Below, piece after piece: positions 15,514-26,544 of a stretch of 64,000 bases of DNA (positions within the stretch are counted from its first letter, which is position 1; each line of letters opens with the position of its first letter). A program made the translations under genes and the position numbers. This DNA comes from Promethearchaeota archaeon (GTDB taxonomy: Archaea; Asgardarchaeota; Lokiarchaeia; Sigyniarchaeales; SOKP01): positions 1-64,000 of the forward strand of contig JBHLOI010000007.1 of the NCBI GenBank assembly GCA_048940645.1, given 5' to 3'. The notes below the pieces were generated by a model. That model was not told the DNA's origin, did not search any database, and saw nothing but the letters and a program-made list of their open reading frames with translations.

Positions 15514-15708
15514 ATGCCTAAGGAAATTTTCGATGAAAATGAATTTTTAGAATTGGCTGAATTCGCAATTCATTGTAGAGTAAAAAGAATTAAGGATGTT
15601 GTAAAATTAAAGCTCAGAACAAAGAAATACTTATATACATACAAAACTGATCCTAATACAGCAAATAGACTGCTAAATACTTTAAAGTGCGATGTTATTG
15701 AATTATAA
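15514..15708 (+). CDS. rpl38e: Ribosomal protein L38e
   Basis: MPKEI...VKLKLRTKKYLYTY pattern matches eL38 (MP.. VKFKVRCSRYLYTL). Confidence 0.88.
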   Translation: MPKEIFDENEFLELAEFAIHCRVKRIKDVVKLKLRTKKYLYTYKTDPNTANRLLNTLKCDVIEL

Positions 15709-18063: not shown

Positions 18064-19620
18064 TTAATTTATTTTAACGGAGTATTTCTGAATACTTTCT
18101 TGCCCAAAAATGTTAATAACTTTTACTTGAATGTGGTATTGATTTGATTCTTTATAAAAGTATGGAGTAGATGTTAATTGTATTTTTCGGTTTTTAGCTG
18201 TTTTATATGAAAACCATACATTGTTAAAGCAATCATCTTTATGATTAAAATCAACAGCCCAATAATCAACCAAGTCATGAAATGAGACGATTTTGTGTTT
18301 AATCTTATCATTTATTAAATTTATAAAAGGTAATTCATAACTTTTTAATTCAATCCACACCTTTTTTCCATCTTTACAAATCTCTAATTCAAATCTAGGA
18401 GGGCCGTTCATATTGATATTTTCATCTTCTTTCTTTAGAAAGTTTTCAGGAATATTAACAGTATTAAATTCTGCATTCATGTTGATAATTTCAAATGGTT
18501 GAAAAGAACGATCATAAGTTTCCTTCCAATTAAAAAGATTATTACTATTAGAAATATCCAGAATTCTTTTCCTAGTAATATGAATTGCATGGTTTGCTAA
18601 ATCACACCCTATCCAACGTCTATTAAGTTTCTCAGCAACAATAAGGCTGGTACCACTTCCACAAAAGAAATCTGCTATAAGATCACCCTCATTTGAAGAT
18701 GCTAAAATAATACGTTTTAATAGTCTCTCTGGTTTTTGAGTCGAAAAACCTTGATATTCAAGTGTATTAGCTCTAATATAAGGTATATCATTCCAAACAT
18801 CTCTGGGAAAAATCCCGTCTTCTTTAACATAGACTTTGCGAGATAATTTTTTTCCATTATGACTTCCTCCCCGGTAATAAAATATTCCATGATTATCTTT
18901 CTTTAATGCATTTTTAACTCTATTTGAGTATTTCATATAGATATTTGGATCATCATTAAAAATGTAATCATCAGATTTTGTATAAAATAAGATAACATCA
19001 TAAGATCTGATGAAAAATCTTCTTGTTTGAGCTGAAGCTGCTGGATATGACCATATTATTTCATTTCTAAAATTTCCACTTCCAAATATTTCATCCAAAA
19101 TAACTTTTATGTAATGGCTAACATGCCAATCTAAATGAACATAAATACTTCCATTTTCAGAAAGTAAATGTTTCATTAACATCAAACGTTCATATAAAAA
19201 AGATAAATAAGCCTCTAAACCTTCTTTCCACGTATCTGAATATGCTATTGCAGATTCACTAAAATCATTTTCTCCAATATGGATTTTATAATTAAAATTT
19301 CCCCCAGTTGCGAATGGAGGGTCAATATAGATAAGATTGATTTTACTCGAAAAATCCTTTAATAACAAATTTAAAATATTTTTATTTTCTCCCCAAATAA
19401 GAAGATTATGCCAATCTTTCTCAGGTGTATTATCTATTATTTTATGTTGGTATTTTTCAAACAAAACTCCTAGATTTTGCTTTCTATTTTGCAAATTTTC
19501 TTTATTTTTGAGATTTAATCTAGAGAAATTATATTGATCTTTTTTTCCACTCCAAATTAGATTTGGCATAATTAATCCTTTATAAGATAGCAAAAAATTT
19601 ATTGTTAATTTCCTTTTCAA
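18064..19620 (-). CDS. Orphan site-specific DNA methyltransferase (N4/N6, beta class, Mod-like); likely start at ATG 19569
   Basis: IYIDPPF catalytic motif precedes TQKPE and DFFCGSGT SAM-binding motif; no restriction subunit adjacent. Confidence 0.9.
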   Translation of the reverse strand: MKRKLTINFLLSYKGLIMPNLIWSGKKDQYNFSRLNLKNKENLQNRKQNLGVLFEKYQHKIIDNTPEKDWHNLLIWGENKNILNLLLKDFSSKINLIYIDPPFATGGNFNYKIHIGENDFSESAIAYSDTWKEGLEAYLSFLYERLMLMKHLLSENGSIYVHLDWHVSHYIKVILDEIFGSGNFRNEIIWSYPAASAQTRRFFIRSYDVILFYTKSDDYIFNDDPNIYMKYSNRVKNALKKDNHGIFYYRGGSHNGKKLSRKVYVKEDGIFPRDVWNDIPYIRANTLEYQGFSTQKPERLLKRIILASSNEGDLIADFFCGSGTSLIVAEKLNRRWIGCDLANHAIHITRKRILDISNSNNLFNWKETYDRSFQPFEIINMNAEFNTVNIPENFLKKEDENINMNGPPRFELEICKDGKKVWIELKSYELPFINLINDKIKHKIVSFHDLVDYWAVDFNHKDDCFNNVWFSYKTAKNRKIQLTSTPYFYKESNQYHIQVKVINIFGQESIQKYSVKIN

Positions 19621-19659: not shown

Positions 19660-20982
19660 ATGGCACTTGAAGAATTAGAAGATTGGAGAAAATCCCATTA
19701 TACTAAAGATATAACTCAAGATTTAATAGATAAAGAGGTAATCCTTGGAGGTTGGGTGAGAAATTTTAGAGATCTTGGTGGTTTAAAATTTATTAATCTT
19801 CAAGATAAGTATGGAGAACGGCAAATAACTTTAAAAAAAGGAGTGGTTTCTGATGATATTTTCGATAAGGCTAAGTTGGGGTATCAGTATTGTATAATGG
19901 TAAAAGGAAATGTAAAGAGATTTGATAAAGCTCCTGGAGGAATTGAGATTATTCCATCAGAAATTAAAATATTAAATAAAACTCCTGAAAAGCTTCCCAT
20001 AGATATGACAGGAGAAACTAATTCTGAATTAGATCTACGGTTGAATAACAGGGCTTTAGATTTAAGATCTTTAAGAAATCAAGCGATTTTTGAAATAAGA
20101 GCAGAAGTTTTAAAATCTATTAGAAATTTTTTACTAGAAAGAGATTTTACAGAGATTACAACCCCAAAAATAATTGGATCGGCTACTGAAGGTGGTACAG
20201 AATTATTTCCCATCATGTATTTTGATAAAGAGGCATTTTTAACACAATCAGCTCAACTATATAAAGAACAACTTAGTGGAGTATATGAAAGAGTATTTGA
20301 AGTAAGTCCGTGTTTCAGAGCTGAAAAAAGTCGTACTAAAAGACACTTATGTGAGATTTTTACATTAGATCTAGAAATGGCTTTTGCAGATATGAACGAT
20401 GTCATCAAGATCTTAGAAGAGATGGTCCACAATGTCATTAAGGATATAAGAGAAAACAAAATGCCGGCTTTAAAAACTCTAAAAATGGAAAATAAGACTA
20501 CTGTTCCAGAAGTACCACTTCCAAGATATAGCTATGATGAAATCCTCGAGTTAATAAATAAAAAATTTAAAATTAGCGTAGAATGGGGTGAAGATATTTC
20601 TACAGAAGCTTACCGTAAATTAGGAGAAGAGATCACAGGTTATTACTACATTACTCATTGGCCAATGGCTATAAAACCATTTTACATTCAGCCATCAAAC
20701 GATCCAAAATATAGCGAATCATTCGATTTACAAATGGGATGGCTTGAATTAACTTCAGGTGGAACCAGAATACATAAAAAAGAAGAACTTATTGAAGCAC
20801 TTGAGGAAAAAGGATTAAATCACATTTCCTTTGAATCTCATCTTAATGTTTTTGGTTTTGGTATGCCTCCTCATGCAGGATTTGGATTAGGTATAGCACG
20901 CTGGATTACATTTTTATGTGGTTTGGATGATATTAGAGAATCTGTTATGTATCCTAGAACACCTGATAGATTAACACCTTAA
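19660..20982 (+). CDS. aspS: Aspartyl-tRNA synthetase, archaeal type, probably non-discriminating
   Basis: OB-fold [40 protein letters not shown]; KAPGG (Pro) loop typical of non-discriminating AspRS. Confidence 0.95.
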
Positions 20983-20992
20983 TTAAATTTCA

Positions 20993-21931
20993 ATGATAGA
21001 ATTTTTTTTAATTATGACTGAAGAATGGATAGATTCATATAAAAAAGCCGGTAAAGCTGTAATTTATGCTCAAAAATTGGTTAAAAAGATTATTAAACCA
21101 GGAGCATTATTTTTAGAAATTGCAAATAAATGTGAGGATGAGATATTTAATCAAGGATGTGAATTAGCTTTTCCAATAAATATTTCCTTGGACAACATTG
21201 CTGCTCATTATAGCCCTTCCATTGATGATGAAACAAGTGTACCAGATAAGGGATTATTAAAGATTGATTTGGGAGCTCATTATAAAGGGTATATCGCAGA
21301 CTCTGCCATTACTTTCAACCTTAATAATGACAAAGCCCTTCAAAATTATATTGATGCCGCAAATGATGGTCTTGAAGCTGCTATTGCCATTTTCAAACCA
21401 GGAACTAAATTATATGAGTTAGGAGAAGCTATTGCTGAAAAAATTATTAATTGTGGTTTAAGACCAATTACTAATCTTGGAGGCCATGAATTAAAAAGAT
21501 TTAATTTGCATGCTGGTCCATTTATTCCAAATTTTAAAGATACTAGTCATAATCAAGTTTTAAAACCGGGCGATGCTTATGCTTGTGAACCCTTTACCAC
21601 ATCAGGAGTTGGGAAAGTTGTAAATGGAACACAATCTTATATTTTTCGCTTTGTTAAAAAGATTAAAAAAGGCCTCTCCTATAAAGATCTAGATCTAATG
21701 AATAAAATTGAAAAATTAACTAATCGCCTTCCATTTTCACCTCGATTACTGGAGAAAAACGGCATTTTAAAAAATGAAATCAAAGGAATAATTGATAGAT
21801 TTTTACGAAAGAAGATTCTGGATCATTATCCAATATTACTTGAAAGGACTGGTGCCCCTGTAGCCCAGCAAGAACATACAATTATAATTGATATGGATGG
21901 AAATCCAATTGTCACTACAAAAGAAAAATAA
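20993..21931 (+). CDS. map: Methionine aminopeptidase type II
   Basis: AAHYSP, KIDLGAH..GYIADSA, LGGH, CEPF, QQEHT. Confidence 0.95.
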   Translation: MIEFFLIMTEEWIDSYKKAGKAVIYAQKLVKKIIKPGALFLEIANKCEDEIFNQGCELAFPINISLDNIAAHYSPSIDDETSVPDKGLLKIDLGAHYKGYIADSAITFNLNNDKALQNYIDAANDGLEAAIAIFKPGTKLYELGEAIAEKIINCGLRPITNLGGHELKRFNLHAGPFIPNFKDTSHNQVLKPGDAYACEPFTTSGVGKVVNGTQSYIFRFVKKIKKGLSYKDLDLMNKIEKLTNRLPFSPRLLEKNGILKNEIKGIIDRFLRKKILDHYPILLERTGAPVAQQEHTIIIDMDGNPIVTTKEK

Positions 21932-22775
21932 AGAAAAAAATCTAATAGCTATCATTTTATGTGCTGGTAAAGGAACTCGATATGGAAAATTTACTCGAAA
22001 AATTCCTAAACCATTAATTAAAATAAAGGCTCTTAATAATATTACCATTCTTCATCATTTAATTAGAGATCTTGATAATTTAAAAGTATTTAAAATTGCT
22101 GTGGTTACTGGATATCTAAGCGAAAGAATACAAGCTTCTTTAGAGATACTAATAAAGGAGCATTGGAATTTAAAAAATAAATTAATTATAGTTAATTCAG
22201 GTGAAGATTATAAGAGAGGCCCAATATTTTCTCTACTTTCCATATTAAAGAACAAGAATATTTATAAGAAAGATAATGTGTTCATTGTTTTTCCTGGGGA
22301 TACAATTTTCAATATCGAGTTATTAAAAGAAATTTTTAGTTTTATTTATGAAAATTATGTATTAATTCAAAAGAGTCCTTATATTTTTTACCAAGAAATT
22401 CAAGCTAAAAATTTATATAAACCTGATAAAGAAAGAGTTAATTTTATATCCATTCTAGAATCTGATGAAACTAAACCAAAAATTAAGATTGAAGAAATTA
22501 AAAAGATAGATATAAACTCACTTCCCAAAGAAATATGGCTAAAAAAAATTATCCCTATATTAGTATTAAACTACTCTGTTTTAGAAATTTTAAATAAACT
22601 TTCTAAAAATAATCCCGTAGAGGAAATTAGAGAGTTATTGAACATATATTTAAAGCAAAATCAGAAGTTAATTCCATTTAAAATAGAATCAAAAAAACAG
22701 TTTTACGATATTGATACTTTTGAAGATTTAAATTATTTCAATCAGCTTGAAAGAGAAAAAAAAGGTGGACAATAG
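21888..22775 (+). CDS. Sugar/phosphocholine nucleotidyltransferase family protein (true start probably slightly downstream)
   Basis: ILCAGKGTRY...PKPL; PGD; FYDIDTFEDL. Confidence 0.82.
   Translation: MIWMEIQLSLQKKNKEKNLIAIILCAGKGTRYGKFTRKIPKPLIKIKALNNITILHHLIRDLDNLKVFKIAVVTGYLSERIQASLEILIKEHWNLKNKLIIVNSGEDYKRGPIFSLLSILKNKNIYKKDNVFIVFPGDTIFNIELLKEIFSFIYENYVLIQKSPYIFYQEIQAKNLYKPDKERVNFISILESDETKPKIKIEEIKKIDINSLPKEIWLKKIIPILVLNYSVLEILNKLSKNNPVEEIRELLNIYLKQNQKLIPFKIESKKQFYDIDTFEDLNYFNQLEREKKGGQ
22756..22763 (-). terminator. Oligo-T terminator (T8) of the candidate ncRNA
   Basis: A8 on the + strand directly abutting the terminal helix (...GUCCACC-UUUUUUUU). Confidence 0.45.
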
Positions 22776-23269
22776 TAGCTCCAATAACCTCAGAAGAGTT
22801 GTATCAAAGGAAAAATGTACTATTTCTTCCTATGAATGGTCTCCTGAATCAAAGCTTCTATTGGGAAATTAGGAAATTTTTCTAAAGAGCCATTTTTGAT
22901 TTATTGTCTCGAGTATCAAAAAATTTACTCAATCCGACAAGAATTCATATTATTATCGCTCCTAAGTATAACCTACCTTTCCTTTTATAGCTATTATTTG
23001 TATAATATAATTATTTGCTCCAAAATGCTGATTTATTTAAACGCTTTTGTGAATTGATGTAAATATTAAAACTTATGAAATTTTCTATAGAGCACTATAG
23101 GAACAAATGTAAATCAATAATAAAAAACAATTGGATTCAATGTTATCATTAAATCCTTAGTCACCAAAAATAAAAAATCTTTAAGTTATTTCAACTTATT
23201 AAATAGTCGCAATTTACTCTACAGTGGACTGTAATAATTGTATTCAATTCCAATGCAATACTATTGTCC
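22764..23269 (-). ncRNA. Candidate ~505-nt structured non-coding RNA of unknown family
   Basis: 12-bp terminal inverted repeat (TGGACAATAGTA 22766-22777 / TACTATTGTCCA 23259-23270); several internal stems; TTTAAATA at -31..-24; T8 tract immediately after the 3' end; no ORF of 60 aa or more. Confidence 0.55.
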
Positions 23270-23292
23270 AATAAATAAGATGGTGAAATGAG

Positions 23293-23300
23293 TATTTAAA
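23293..23300 (-). promoter_or_regulatory. Archaeal TATA box (TTTAAATA) for the candidate ncRNA
   Basis: Ends 24 nt upstream of the G at 23269 that opens the terminal helix; A-rich BRE-like sequence upstream. Confidence 0.55.
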
Positions 23301-23392
23301 TCTTATTATTAAATCCAATAATCATGGGACAATATTTTTTAAATATAAATTTGAAATAATATAAATATCAAAATTGATTCTATAAATAAATA

Positions 23393-23806
23393 ATGCCTGA
23401 AAGTGGAGACATTCCAATAAATATTACTCTTTTTGGAATCTGTGAATTAAAAGGAAATATCATTCGACATTTTGCGCCTTTATCTGCTGATGCAATTTTA
23501 GATAAATTACCTCTTGTTTTAAGAGGTAGATATAGTTTTGGAGGGAAAAAGTATTGGACCCTTCCAGGAGTTGAAATTTTTAAAGGCACTAATCCAAAAT
23601 CCAAAAAAGAAGTAGAGAAAGGTGACATCATTTATAATCCAAAAACAGATGAACTAATTTTAGTTATTGAGAATATGCTCATGCCTAATAAAGTAAACAA
23701 GATTGGGAAGATAGAAAGTACTCTTGAATTATTACTAAAAGCAACAAATGGATTAAATACAAGAATTTCTAAATCTCCTGGATCAAAACGAGAACAAAAG
23801 TTATGA
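23393..23806 (+). CDS. Cyclophilin-like fold protein (DUF369/DUF3830-like)
   Basis: APLSADAILDKLPL..RG...VEKGDIIYNP...VNKIGKI pattern. Confidence 0.65.
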   Translation: MPESGDIPINITLFGICELKGNIIRHFAPLSADAILDKLPLVLRGRYSFGGKKYWTLPGVEIFKGTNPKSKKEVEKGDIIYNPKTDELILVIENMLMPNKVNKIGKIESTLELLLKATNGLNTRISKSPGSKREQKL

Positions 23807-24615
23807 CAGTACCAAAAAAGTTATCAATTGTCTTCATATTTTTTTATTTAGCTATAATCCTCTATCTTGTCTTATTTTTAACAATCCCAGCGATAGAAAA
23901 TCTTGTTTATCAAGCAAGAAGGAATATTGCGATTTTAACAGAAGGAACTAATTACTTTTTAGCTATTATAATTTCGTTTTTTATTTGTATAATTGGAAAT
24001 GCTAGTGTAGGTTTTCCTGTACCCTATCCTTTTATACTTTTTTCATTCTCAAATTCAATTTACACAAATTATTTAAATCAAGGATTAGTAATGGGACAGA
24101 TTTTATTCAATGGATATTTTTGGTTGGAAATCTTAGGAATTACTCTTGTTGGGGGATTAGGGAGTGCTTTAGGAGAATTAGTCAGTCTCTTAATTGGAAA
24201 AGGTGCAAAGAAAGTTGCAGCAAATAATACTCTTGAAAATGTTCAAGGGTTTGGCAAAATAGTGGTAGAACATCCAAAAAGTATGTATATGTATATATTT
24301 ATTGCTGCTGCATTACCTATTCCCGATGATCCTCTATGGATTGCTTTAGGTATGTCAGAAAAGCCCATAAACTTTCGTAAATGTCTTATTTGGGCCTGGT
24401 TAGGAAAAAATATAACAACTCTCTTCTATGCACTTCTTCCTATCTTAATTTTATTTGGAGTCAATGCATCTGGTATAAGTTTAGAAGATAAAGTAAGCGT
24501 AATAACAGAAGCAATAATGTTATTGGTTACAATAACTCTGATGTTCTTCATTATGACATTTAATTGGAATAAACTTATTGAAAAAAGACAAAAAAAAAAG
24601 CAGAAAAGCAATTAG
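23803..24615 (+). CDS. DedA/VTT-domain membrane protein
   Basis: FPVPYP, GLGSALGELVSLLIGKG, ALPIPDDPL, GK motifs; ATGA overlap with the upstream gene. Confidence 0.78.
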   Translation: MTVPKKLSIVFIFFYLAIILYLVLFLTIPAIENLVYQARRNIAILTEGTNYFLAIIISFFICIIGNASVGFPVPYPFILFSFSNSIYTNYLNQGLVMGQILFNGYFWLEILGITLVGGLGSALGELVSLLIGKGAKKVAANNTLENVQGFGKIVVEHPKSMYMYIFIAAALPIPDDPLWIALGMSEKPINFRKCLIWAWLGKNITTLFYALLPILILFGVNASGISLEDKVSVITEAIMLLVTITLMFFIMTFNWNKLIEKRQKKKQKSN

Positions 24616-24625
24616 ATCCTAATAA

Positions 24626-24790
24626 TTATTTATTATTATTCAAACAATTTTTACAGACAAAAATTACTTTTTGTTTTTTTTCTGAACTCTCGTCATAATA
24701 AACTCTTTTATAAATGAAATTCTTGCAGATTTCACATATAGCAGAAGTTCTATTTTCCCCCAATAATGGGCCTAATTTTTCAAATGACAT
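24626..24790 (-). CDS. Small zinc-finger microprotein (54 aa)
   Basis: Below the ORF-track cutoff: MSFEKLGPLLGENRTSAICEICKNFIYKRVYYDESSEKKQKVIFVCKNCLNNNK; two CxxC; starts 8 nt after the Alba-like stop. Confidence 0.75.
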   Translation of the reverse strand: MSFEKLGPLLGENRTSAICEICKNFIYKRVYYDESSEKKQKVIFVCKNCLNNNK

Positions 24791-24798
24791 TTAAACAA

Positions 24799-25116
24799 CT
24801 ATGGTATCGATTTTGAAAGTGTTATTTCTATCTTTGAGATTAAATCTTTTTTTTGCTTCTCTCTCTTTTTAACTTTATAAGTTTGTCGATTATCATAATA
24901 ATATGGACGGCTTCCCAATGAAATATTCGCTATTTCTACACCTGGGTACATCCGATGTTTTAAAATTTCAGCAACTTCCACTGCAGTTGAAATTTCATCA
25001 CCTTCACCTTTTATCATTAGTGATTTAGTCCCTCCAGAAAATGCAAAAATAGCATCTTTAATAGTTCTATCTTTATCAGAACGGTTTTTTATTATTAGTG
25101 TGGTATCATTAACCAT
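24799..25116 (-). CDS. Divergent Alba-family nucleic-acid-binding protein
   Basis: IKGEGDEISTAVEVAEILKHR...ISLGS...ISKIEITLSK parallels Alba IKARGRAISKAVDVAEIV...VSTIEIVL. Confidence 0.72.
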   Translation of the reverse strand: MVNDTTLIIKNRSDKDRTIKDAIFAFSGGTKSLMIKGEGDEISTAVEVAEILKHRMYPGVEIANISLGSRPYYYDNRQTYKVKKREKQKKDLISKIEITLSKSIP

Positions 25117-25290
25117 GAAAGAACCTCGTTAATAAAAACTTACTATGATTGAATCAAAAAAAGTTTAGTAGTAAATAGTAAGTATACTTCAATGAATATA
25201 AAATTTTTTTAAATTATATATATTACAATTATTTTTTTAACTATTAATACACCCTTTCAATTAAAATATCTTAAAAGGTTGAAAATTTAA

Positions 25291-26544
25291 TTAAAGATTA
25301 AATTCTGAACGTGAATTTAAATAATCTAAAATTTTATAATAATCAGAGCTTCTAGACTCAAAATGTTCGATTATCTTACGTTCATTCGTGTCTAAATAAT
25401 CATAATAAGGAAAGATTATTTCAATGCGTTTAGTGAAATCTTCAATTAATTTATTATACCAATCATTTGGTTTTGCTAAAAGTGTCTGAATTTTTTTCTT
25501 AAATTTTTCTCTTTTTCCTTTAAATTTTGCATCATCATTGCTTTTCTTGATTTCTAATAAAAATTTTTCATATTTTTTAATATCTTCTTCTACCTTTTCT
25601 CTAAACTTAGGAATCCTAAAGCTTTTTTTAAAAAAATCAGGATCCCACTCATATAAATATCTCTCATCTTCCTCGGCTTCCTCTTCATCAGCAGTTACTA
25701 TAATGTCACTTTTAGGGACTAAAATTAATCCATAATTTCTCTGTAATTGGGCTAAATACCTCTTACGTAAAATTTGATCAATATATTTTATTTCTTTCAA
25801 GACTTTTGTAATATTTTTATCTAAATCTTTTATGATTGGAGTGGCTTCTTTAATCATTTCTTTTTGAGGGAATTCATATTCCAAATCTGTAAAATCGTAT
25901 GTAGAAAGCATTTCTTGTTCTGGATTTAACATGCGTAGTGCAGCAACTCCTAGATAATAATCTGTAGATTTTAATTCACAATGATTAAAAATTAGGCCCA
26001 CCGCAAATGGATTTGGAATTTGATAACCTAATTGAGTTAGACAATCTACAGAACTAAAAAAAAACTTAAATCCAGGATGTGTATGCCACCATCCTATTAT
26101 AAAATCGTCCTTTTTATCTTGAACAGACTTTTGATATACAGATTCATCAATTTGAGCCATATCAACATATTGTTTGTTTTCATATGCTACACCCGCTCGA
26201 TCTCCTACAATCATTGGGATGGCATCTTTTATAATCACTTCTTTGTTGTTTTCTATAGATCCAATTAGGATTCCATAAACTTCACGCCAGTTTTTTGACG
26301 ATAATTCATTATTAGCATATCTCATCGCATATCCAACCATTCTTCGATAGGCATTAAACTTCAATAAAACGGGTGTTTTCGCAGGATTTATTCCATATTT
26401 TTCTATTAGTTTATCAGTTGGAGATAATTCTGTCAACCTTATAGATCTTAAATTGCCATTATCCTCTCCTGAATCTTCAAATTTGTTTTGATTGAGTGAT
26501 TTCTTTTTTGTATCTTGATCCTTGTTGCTTCTATCATTCATCAT
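25291..26544 (-). CDS. JAMM/MPN+ metalloprotease with long helical C-terminal extension
   Basis: EVYGILIG and GWWHTHPGFKFFFSSVD (E..HxH..S..D). Confidence 0.88.
   Translation of the reverse strand: MMNDRSNKDQDTKKKSLNQNKFEDSGEDNGNLRSIRLTELSPTDKLIEKYGINPAKTPVLLKFNAYRRMVGYAMRYANNELSSKNWREVYGILIGSIENNKEVIIKDAIPMIVGDRAGVAYENKQYVDMAQIDESVYQKSVQDKKDDFIIGWWHTHPGFKFFFSSVDCLTQLGYQIPNPFAVGLIFNHCELKSTDYYLGVAALRMLNPEQEMLSTYDFTDLEYEFPQKEMIKEATPIIKDLDKNITKVLKEIKYIDQILRKRYLAQLQRNYGLILVPKSDIIVTADEEEAEEDERYLYEWDPDFFKKSFRIPKFREKVEEDIKKYEKFLLEIKKSNDDAKFKGKREKFKKKIQTLLAKPNDWYNKLIEDFTKRIEIIFPYYDYLDTNERKIIEHFESRSSDYYKILDYLNSRSEFNL

Follow-up and report, generated by a model that had tools for sequence, protein, structure and literature searches.

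A single-copy RNA gene of about 500 nucleotides, without a catalogued relative, in one Promethearchaeota (Loki) family

To our knowledge, the large stand-alone RNAs of archaea beyond rRNA are mainly RNase P and SRP RNA, and the non-coding RNAs of Asgard archaea are almost unstudied. In bacteria, OLE, ROOL, GOLLD and the raiA motif are large, stand-alone orphan RNAs of unresolved mechanism. The Loki RNA considered here resembles them in size class and in being a stand-alone gene whose mechanism is unresolved, whereas their interiors are ornate and covarying and that of the Loki RNA, which is archaeal, chromosomal and without an Rfam match, cannot be aligned across genera. Y RNAs, or stem-bulge RNAs, the partners of Ro60, combine a conserved end-to-end stem and fixed bases with a variable interior, an organization that the Loki RNA shares, although it is three to eight times longer, has no Rfam match and comes from a lineage in which no TROVE domain was found (0/5 genomes, three of these in the family). 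The 7SK snRNA, for which circular and linear forms have been described, is a stand-alone RNA with an end-to-end long-range helix, a 3' hairpin, a U-rich end and alternative folds (PMC10083321). The Loki RNA has counterparts to these features, that to the alternative folds being no more than a prediction for about half of its genera. However, 7SK is about 330 nt long, is made by Pol III and acts on P-TEFb, whereas the Loki RNA has no sequence match to it and no La-family protein was found alongside it (the La motif was not found in three family genomes). 7SK may be regarded as the closest functional analogy, by analogy only and with no family membership implied.

In the window, that is, the whole 64,000-nt stretch of DNA analysed, the single-copy gene for this RNA occupies positions 22767-23269 of the minus strand, a length of 503 nt when counted from the initial G of its terminal helix P1 to the final C. 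The 5' strand of P1 (RNA nt 1-11) lies at 23259-23269 and its 3' strand (nt 493-503) at 22767-22777. A TATA box at 23300-23293, corresponding to -31 to -24 relative to G23269, is preceded immediately upstream by a purine-rich BRE-like stretch (promoter 23293-23304), and P1 is followed by a 3-nt tail and a U8 terminator tract at 22756-22763 (tail and tract together, 22756-22766). The preliminary description had placed a minus-strand TATA element at archaeal distance from G23269 and a terminator at U8, and both were confirmed, almost every homologue having the TATA box at a similar spacing and most having the U-tract; the tail varies, and reads ACC in 20 of 92 sequences and in this genome. The perfect 12-bp terminal inverted repeat reported to bracket a gap without an open reading frame of at least 60 aa was likewise verified: no such frame starts in the gap, and the RNA strand has no stop-free stretch longer than 27 codons. 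Taken alone, the repeat is only modestly unusual, as a 12-bp repeat whose arms are separated by 400 nt or more arose in 10 of 500 dinucleotide shuffles, and one in any position in 53 of the 500. The folding z-score is -4.6 for the minus strand and -2.7 for the plus strand.

The RNA is flanked by a convergent NTP-transferase gene (21888-22775, plus strand; PF12804/PF00483) and a divergent cyclophilin-like gene (23393-23806, plus strand; PF18050). The former ends in a stop codon (22773-22775) that falls within the P1 3' strand, giving an overlap of 9 nt between RNA and gene, and its last three codons including the stop (22767-22775) complement that strand in 26 of the 28 members of the genus. 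The NTP-transferase is itself fast-diverging, with 32-43% identity in most of the genus against 57-80% for its neighbours. Nearby genes encode ribosomal L38e (15514-15708), Alba (24799-25116) and a JAB/MPN-domain protein (25291-26544), and a 518-aa gene at 18064-19620, whose DPPF motif (recognized by eye) recalls DNA adenine methyltransferases, lies on the opposite (minus) strand within a run of translation genes. Elsewhere in this genome, ARAGORN calls a selenocysteine tRNA (G000:C101:14409-14501).

Homologues were collected by BLAST, by walking upstream of the cyclophilin-like gene and with a promoter-plus-motif pattern. The resulting set counts 92 distinct sequences, 343-790 nt long with a median of 485, and each of the 13 genera of one Promethearchaeota (Loki) family is represented in it. 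BLAST recovered 28 full-length copies in the genus, this genome's counted in, all between the same two genes. The NTP-transferase is convergent with the RNA 3' end at 28/28 genus loci and at three of four loci in genus g21, the fourth g21 contig ending first. In g21 the cyclophilin-like operon has moved away from the RNA, which remains convergent with the NTP-transferase; since the RNA persists where the divergent operon has gone, it is not a leader of that operon. The 3.8-Mb assembly holds one copy of the element, and one copy per genome at a fixed locus excludes the MITE that the preliminary description had kept as an alternative. The longest member, L096 (G003:C5), at 790 nt, exceeds the median by about 300 nt. 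A second cyclophilin-like locus in genome G080 (L058, G080:C87) carries the RNA promoter and 5' end with no 3' end within 800 nt, and in genome G014 (9% contamination) two contigs carry a copy each; mixed bins or broken duplicates may account for these cases.

The RNA appears restricted to this family as far as the searches reach. In the sister families f2 and f4 the aminopeptidase-transferase pair is kept and no such RNA stands at the syntenic site behind it. One f2 genome (G053; L276, L081) shows tandem repeats, one of 18-nt units on the downstream side of the NTP-transferase and another of 12-nt units on the upstream side of the cyclophilin-like gene. Outside the family, the strict-pattern matches that were checked all fell in open reading frames and lacked the P1 closing helix, matches to a relaxed pattern in five more complete genomes were mostly due to chance, and none of 66 viral pattern matches, themselves attributable to chance, contained a complete copy. 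The RNA was thus not found outside the family, cultured Promethearchaeum lineages included, but these were short-motif searches of low sensitivity and do not prove absence.

Family-wide, the only fixed elements are the promoter, P1, a CAUUGG motif and the U-tract. Pairs 1-10 of P1 are each paired in 89-92 of the 92 sequences (about 99%), with two-sided changes at six positions (1, 2, 4, 6, 9 and 10), and positions 3, 5 and 8 are invariant in 92/92. The identity of P1 is conserved far beyond pairing needs, and part of the invariance may come from the overlapping convergent stop codon (26/28 genus members). In a 60-sequence alignment, P1 pair 10 was the sole column pair above a tree-aware null, exceeding every null value. 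The compensatory changes are those of P1; no interior helix showed covariation above the null, probably owing to the poor alignment of the interior. Read on the minus strand, pairs 1-10 include 17 G-U pairs against 4 A-C mismatches, an excess that supports the minus strand independently of the promoter. The CAUUGG motif (RNA nt 15-20, 23250-23255) is exact in 84/92 sequences, with its C, A and first G invariant and its start between nt 11 and 23, and is fixed although its predicted intramolecular partner differs between genera.

The interior cannot be aligned across genera, and whole hairpins are missing in some members. All seven stem pairs listed in the preliminary description are present where it had placed them, but two of them (23182-23198 and 23085-23100) do not survive even in close relatives, and the CCAATA/TATTGG stem (22781/22864) is not the conserved register. 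The 10-bp hairpin at 23133-23156, which has one A-C mismatch on the plus strand that becomes a U-G pair on the minus strand, is retained in the closest clade only (8 close relatives), and comparison of homologues around the central hairpin at 22904-22940 revealed flanking motifs common to genera g1, g19, g27 and g28. At the 3' end, a hairpin stacked on P1 (22777-22856) is composed of an outer helix (22848-22856/22777-22785) and inner stems (22803-22836), with 96.6% of cells paired in the genus alignment and consistent one-sided changes. The GGAGCUA strand just before the P1 3' strand had been likened to P/MRP CR-V; in g1, g27 and g28 it instead pairs about 70 nt upstream, within this nested hairpin, and its changes follow the local partner in L011, L012 and L065. 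The motif reads GGGGCUA in one clade and is replaced in g18, g20, g21, g23 and g29. In g29 and g21 a hairpin at the same place is built from different sequences, and in g18 the strand before the P1 3' strand pairs with the CAUUGG segment instead. Several other candidate structures were tried and rejected. In g27 and g28, CCGAC could form a P4-like helix with the 3' strand over a long range, but covariation does not support it; a P4 pseudoknot of the RNase P/MRP type is not what the 3' strand forms, since this strand lies in the nested hairpin and is not conserved family-wide; and a resume codon after a conserved GGAGCA would open frames of 2 to more than 20 codons, the motif being the 3' strand of a helix in g28.

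In many members a copy of the P1 5' strand lies just 5' of the 3' hairpin (CAAUAG, 22858-22863 in this genome) and offers an alternative partner for the P1 3' strand, with 94.6% of cells paired in the genus alignment and no two-sided changes. Such a copy could let the 3' end pair locally and release the 5' end. The local alternative duplex beats shuffles (≤2/40) in 13/14 g1, 4/4 g27 and 6/7 g28 members and in g19. The outcome is mixed in g21, g23 and g29; in g18, g20, g22, g25 and g26 the duplex is missing or does no better than chance. P1 has a probability of at least 0.96 in the predicted ensemble of 23 of 26 representatives, and the alternative pairing costs 3-17 kcal/mol against it. An open/closed switch of the 3' strand in about half the genera is therefore no more than a possible behaviour suggested by folding models, a lead rather than a finding.

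Words of the stretch occur in 22 RNA-recorded runs. Contigs from three studies, mapped on 20000-26000, begin at 22766-22774 and end at 23248-23253, and one spans 480 nt unbroken; a contig from a fourth metatranscriptome study covers the middle of the RNA. The flanking genes are represented in the same runs only by short scattered pieces. These contigs derive from relatives and reveal neither strand nor exact ends, and the runs were selected for holding the element, so that their depth cannot rank genes. The contigs of the three studies support a discrete transcript at an unproven level. Several lines of evidence support the earlier proposal of an independently transcribed, large minus-strand RNA of unrecognised family: the RNA is conserved, P1 shows compensatory changes, the promoter and terminator are kept in relatives, and there are RNA contigs.

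Comparison with known families gave no assignment. Rfam scans returned no credible match at the window or at 14 diverse homologous loci, and the suggestion that the RNA might be a very divergent RNase P/MRP or SRP RNA found no support, canonical forms of RNase P and SRP RNA being encoded elsewhere in the genome. The RNase P RNA (RF00373) scores 123.7 bits on contig C74 and its model has no match at 22767-23269; the RNase MRP model (RF00030) has no match at E ≤ 1 in the genome. The RNase P RNA of this genome (L001:1501-1825) has a variant P4, with GAGGAACCUCACC as CR-I in place of the usual consensus, so a search by eye for the standard motif would miss that RNA. The SRP RNA (RF01857) scores 72.7 bits on contig C97, and the Loki RNA has neither the helix 8 motif that binds SRP54 nor a match to the SRP model. 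Paralogy with it, suggested by a 5' start shared in this genome, was rejected on finding that the start is not conserved among 31 SRP RNAs. The SRP RNAs are unusual in their own right (L002:652-960 on G000:C97; L290-L319): in most family genera they start at helix 3, end with helix 5 and have no visible helix 1, of which a 4-bp remnant exists in genus g18 and family f2 and the full form in f5-f7, and they score below the Rfam cut-off in all family members tested. Eukaryotic SRP RNA likewise has no helix 1. A retron is not indicated either, as neither this genome nor G123 gave an RVT_1 match and no reverse transcriptase is present among the neighbours.

The organization of the RNA is best accommodated, in our view, by a stand-alone, stable, housekeeping-type RNA that serves as a protein-binding scaffold or sponge, a tentative preference held with a little less than even confidence; protein binding has not been shown. 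The locus has its own promoter and U-tract, is present once per genome, is retained throughout the family, yields RNA contigs reaching near its ends and places P1 beside CAUUGG. The fixity of P1, CAUUGG, promoter and U-tract in an RNA whose length ranges over 343-790 nt and whose hairpins can be lost fits a docking site on a flexible scaffold rather than a catalytic core. It is inferred that P1 would join and protect both ends of the RNA, that P1 and CAUUGG would form a sequence-specific docking site for one core protein or complex, and that the 300-750 nt interior would consist of exchangeable hairpins that provide either spacing or binding arms particular to a lineage. A weaker inference is that the 3' strand, in about half the genera, might leave P1 for a longer local hairpin and free the 5' end; the particle could in this way alternate between a bound and a released state, as described for the circular and linear forms of 7SK (PMC10083321). 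No protein partner has been identified, Ro60/TROVE and La not having been found in the family genomes tested.

The fixity of CAUUGG beside a variable intramolecular partner is also what would be expected of a base-pairing guide or chaperone like U3 or snR30, in which the freed motif, together with the bases around it, would base-pair in trans with pre-rRNA, tRNA or mRNA; the variable linker before the motif, which starts anywhere from nt 11 to 23, would suit a tethered seed. Six bases are short, however, no box C/D or H/ACA signature was seen, no perfect CCAAUG target exists in the family 23S, partial 16S, RNase P and SRP sequences examined, and CCA is depleted before start codons (0.4% vs 1.1%), which leaves this reading unlikely without dismissing it. 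Slightly weaker grounds remain for a tRNA- or tmRNA-like ribosome ligand in which P1 is the acceptor stem, CAUUGG a D-loop mimic and the 3' hairpin occupies the T-arm position. The size is similar, this genome has an ACC tail, and the elements follow one another around the terminal helix much as in the tRNA-like domain of tmRNA, with an acceptor, a GG loop left unpaired, a large insert and a helix stacked on the acceptor. Yet SmpB was found in 0/61 relatives, with controls positive in all 10 bacteria; the tmRNA model (RF00023) has no match at the locus and ARAGORN lists no tmRNA in the genome; position 3 is A-U in 92/92, which rules out a G3-U70 pair; the ACC tail is limited to 20/92 and no CCA end is present; the apparent T-arm of 5 bp and 7 nt is broken in L008, L011 and L013; and no conserved tag frame was seen. 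Taken together, a ribosome ligand of this kind is quite improbable.

Archaeal RNA polymerase is recruited to DNA by TBP and TFB, a circumstance that speaks against a 6S-like regulator which would bind the enzyme, template a short product against its 5' end and refold its 3' strand for release. The end-to-end closing stem and alternative local fold recall such an RNA, and 6S release does work by product-induced refolding (PMC8876501), but the Loki RNA is not shaped as a rod opened by a central bubble, is between two and four times as large as 6S and has no Rfam 6S match, and its alternative fold is not family-wide; we consider this reading doubtful. A catalytic RNase P paralogue or a forerunner of RNase MRP would explain the terminal helix, on whose 3' strand a second helix stacks, the GGAGCUA (GGGGCUA in one clade) directly before that strand and, in several genera, a CCGAC near nt 90 that could pair with it. 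Here the stacked helix is a nested hairpin rather than a P4 pseudoknot, no consensus from CR-I (GAA) to CR-V (ACAGAA) is present, GGAGCUA varies with its local partner and is replaced in five genera, and the genome has its canonical RNase P and no match to the MRP model. The paralogue is largely refuted, and very little weight is left to it. Equally little can be given to a mobile element, whether MITE or transposon-end RNA, that survives as a relic or has been domesticated and has no present job. Terminal inverted repeats, a fast-evolving AT-rich interior and absence from the syntenic site in sister families would fit such an origin, but there is no target-site duplication, the flanks are asymmetric (promoter on one side, U-tract on the other), changes in P1 tolerate G-U pairs, which is a signature at the RNA level, all 13 genera retain the element, and the single copy per genome and the lack of a complete viral copy offer no sign of mobility.

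No description of a Loki RNA of about 500 nt was found in the literature, and the lineage is not mentioned in the main text of a recent atlas of prokaryotic intergenic RNAs (bioRxiv 10.64898/2026.10.21.760802). This is a real RNA family without a catalogued relative, restricted as far as seen to one Loki family and of unproven function. It adds another large stand-alone RNA to the archaeal inventory, one with its own promoter, in single copy across a large Asgard family and present in sediment metatranscriptomes. Since searches beyond the family did not find it, the RNA may have arisen as an innovation of this lineage instead of being ancestral to a eukaryotic RNA. Returning to the protein-binding scaffold or sponge, a binding partner, whatever its nature, would indicate an unknown archaeal RNP. 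In its boldest and so far unlikely form, that scaffold would be a new archaeal housekeeping RNP whose RNA toggles between end-paired and open states to hold and release a core transcription or translation factor; if true, this would amount to a 7SK- or 6S-like layer of control undescribed in archaea, in a lineage near the origin of eukaryotes.
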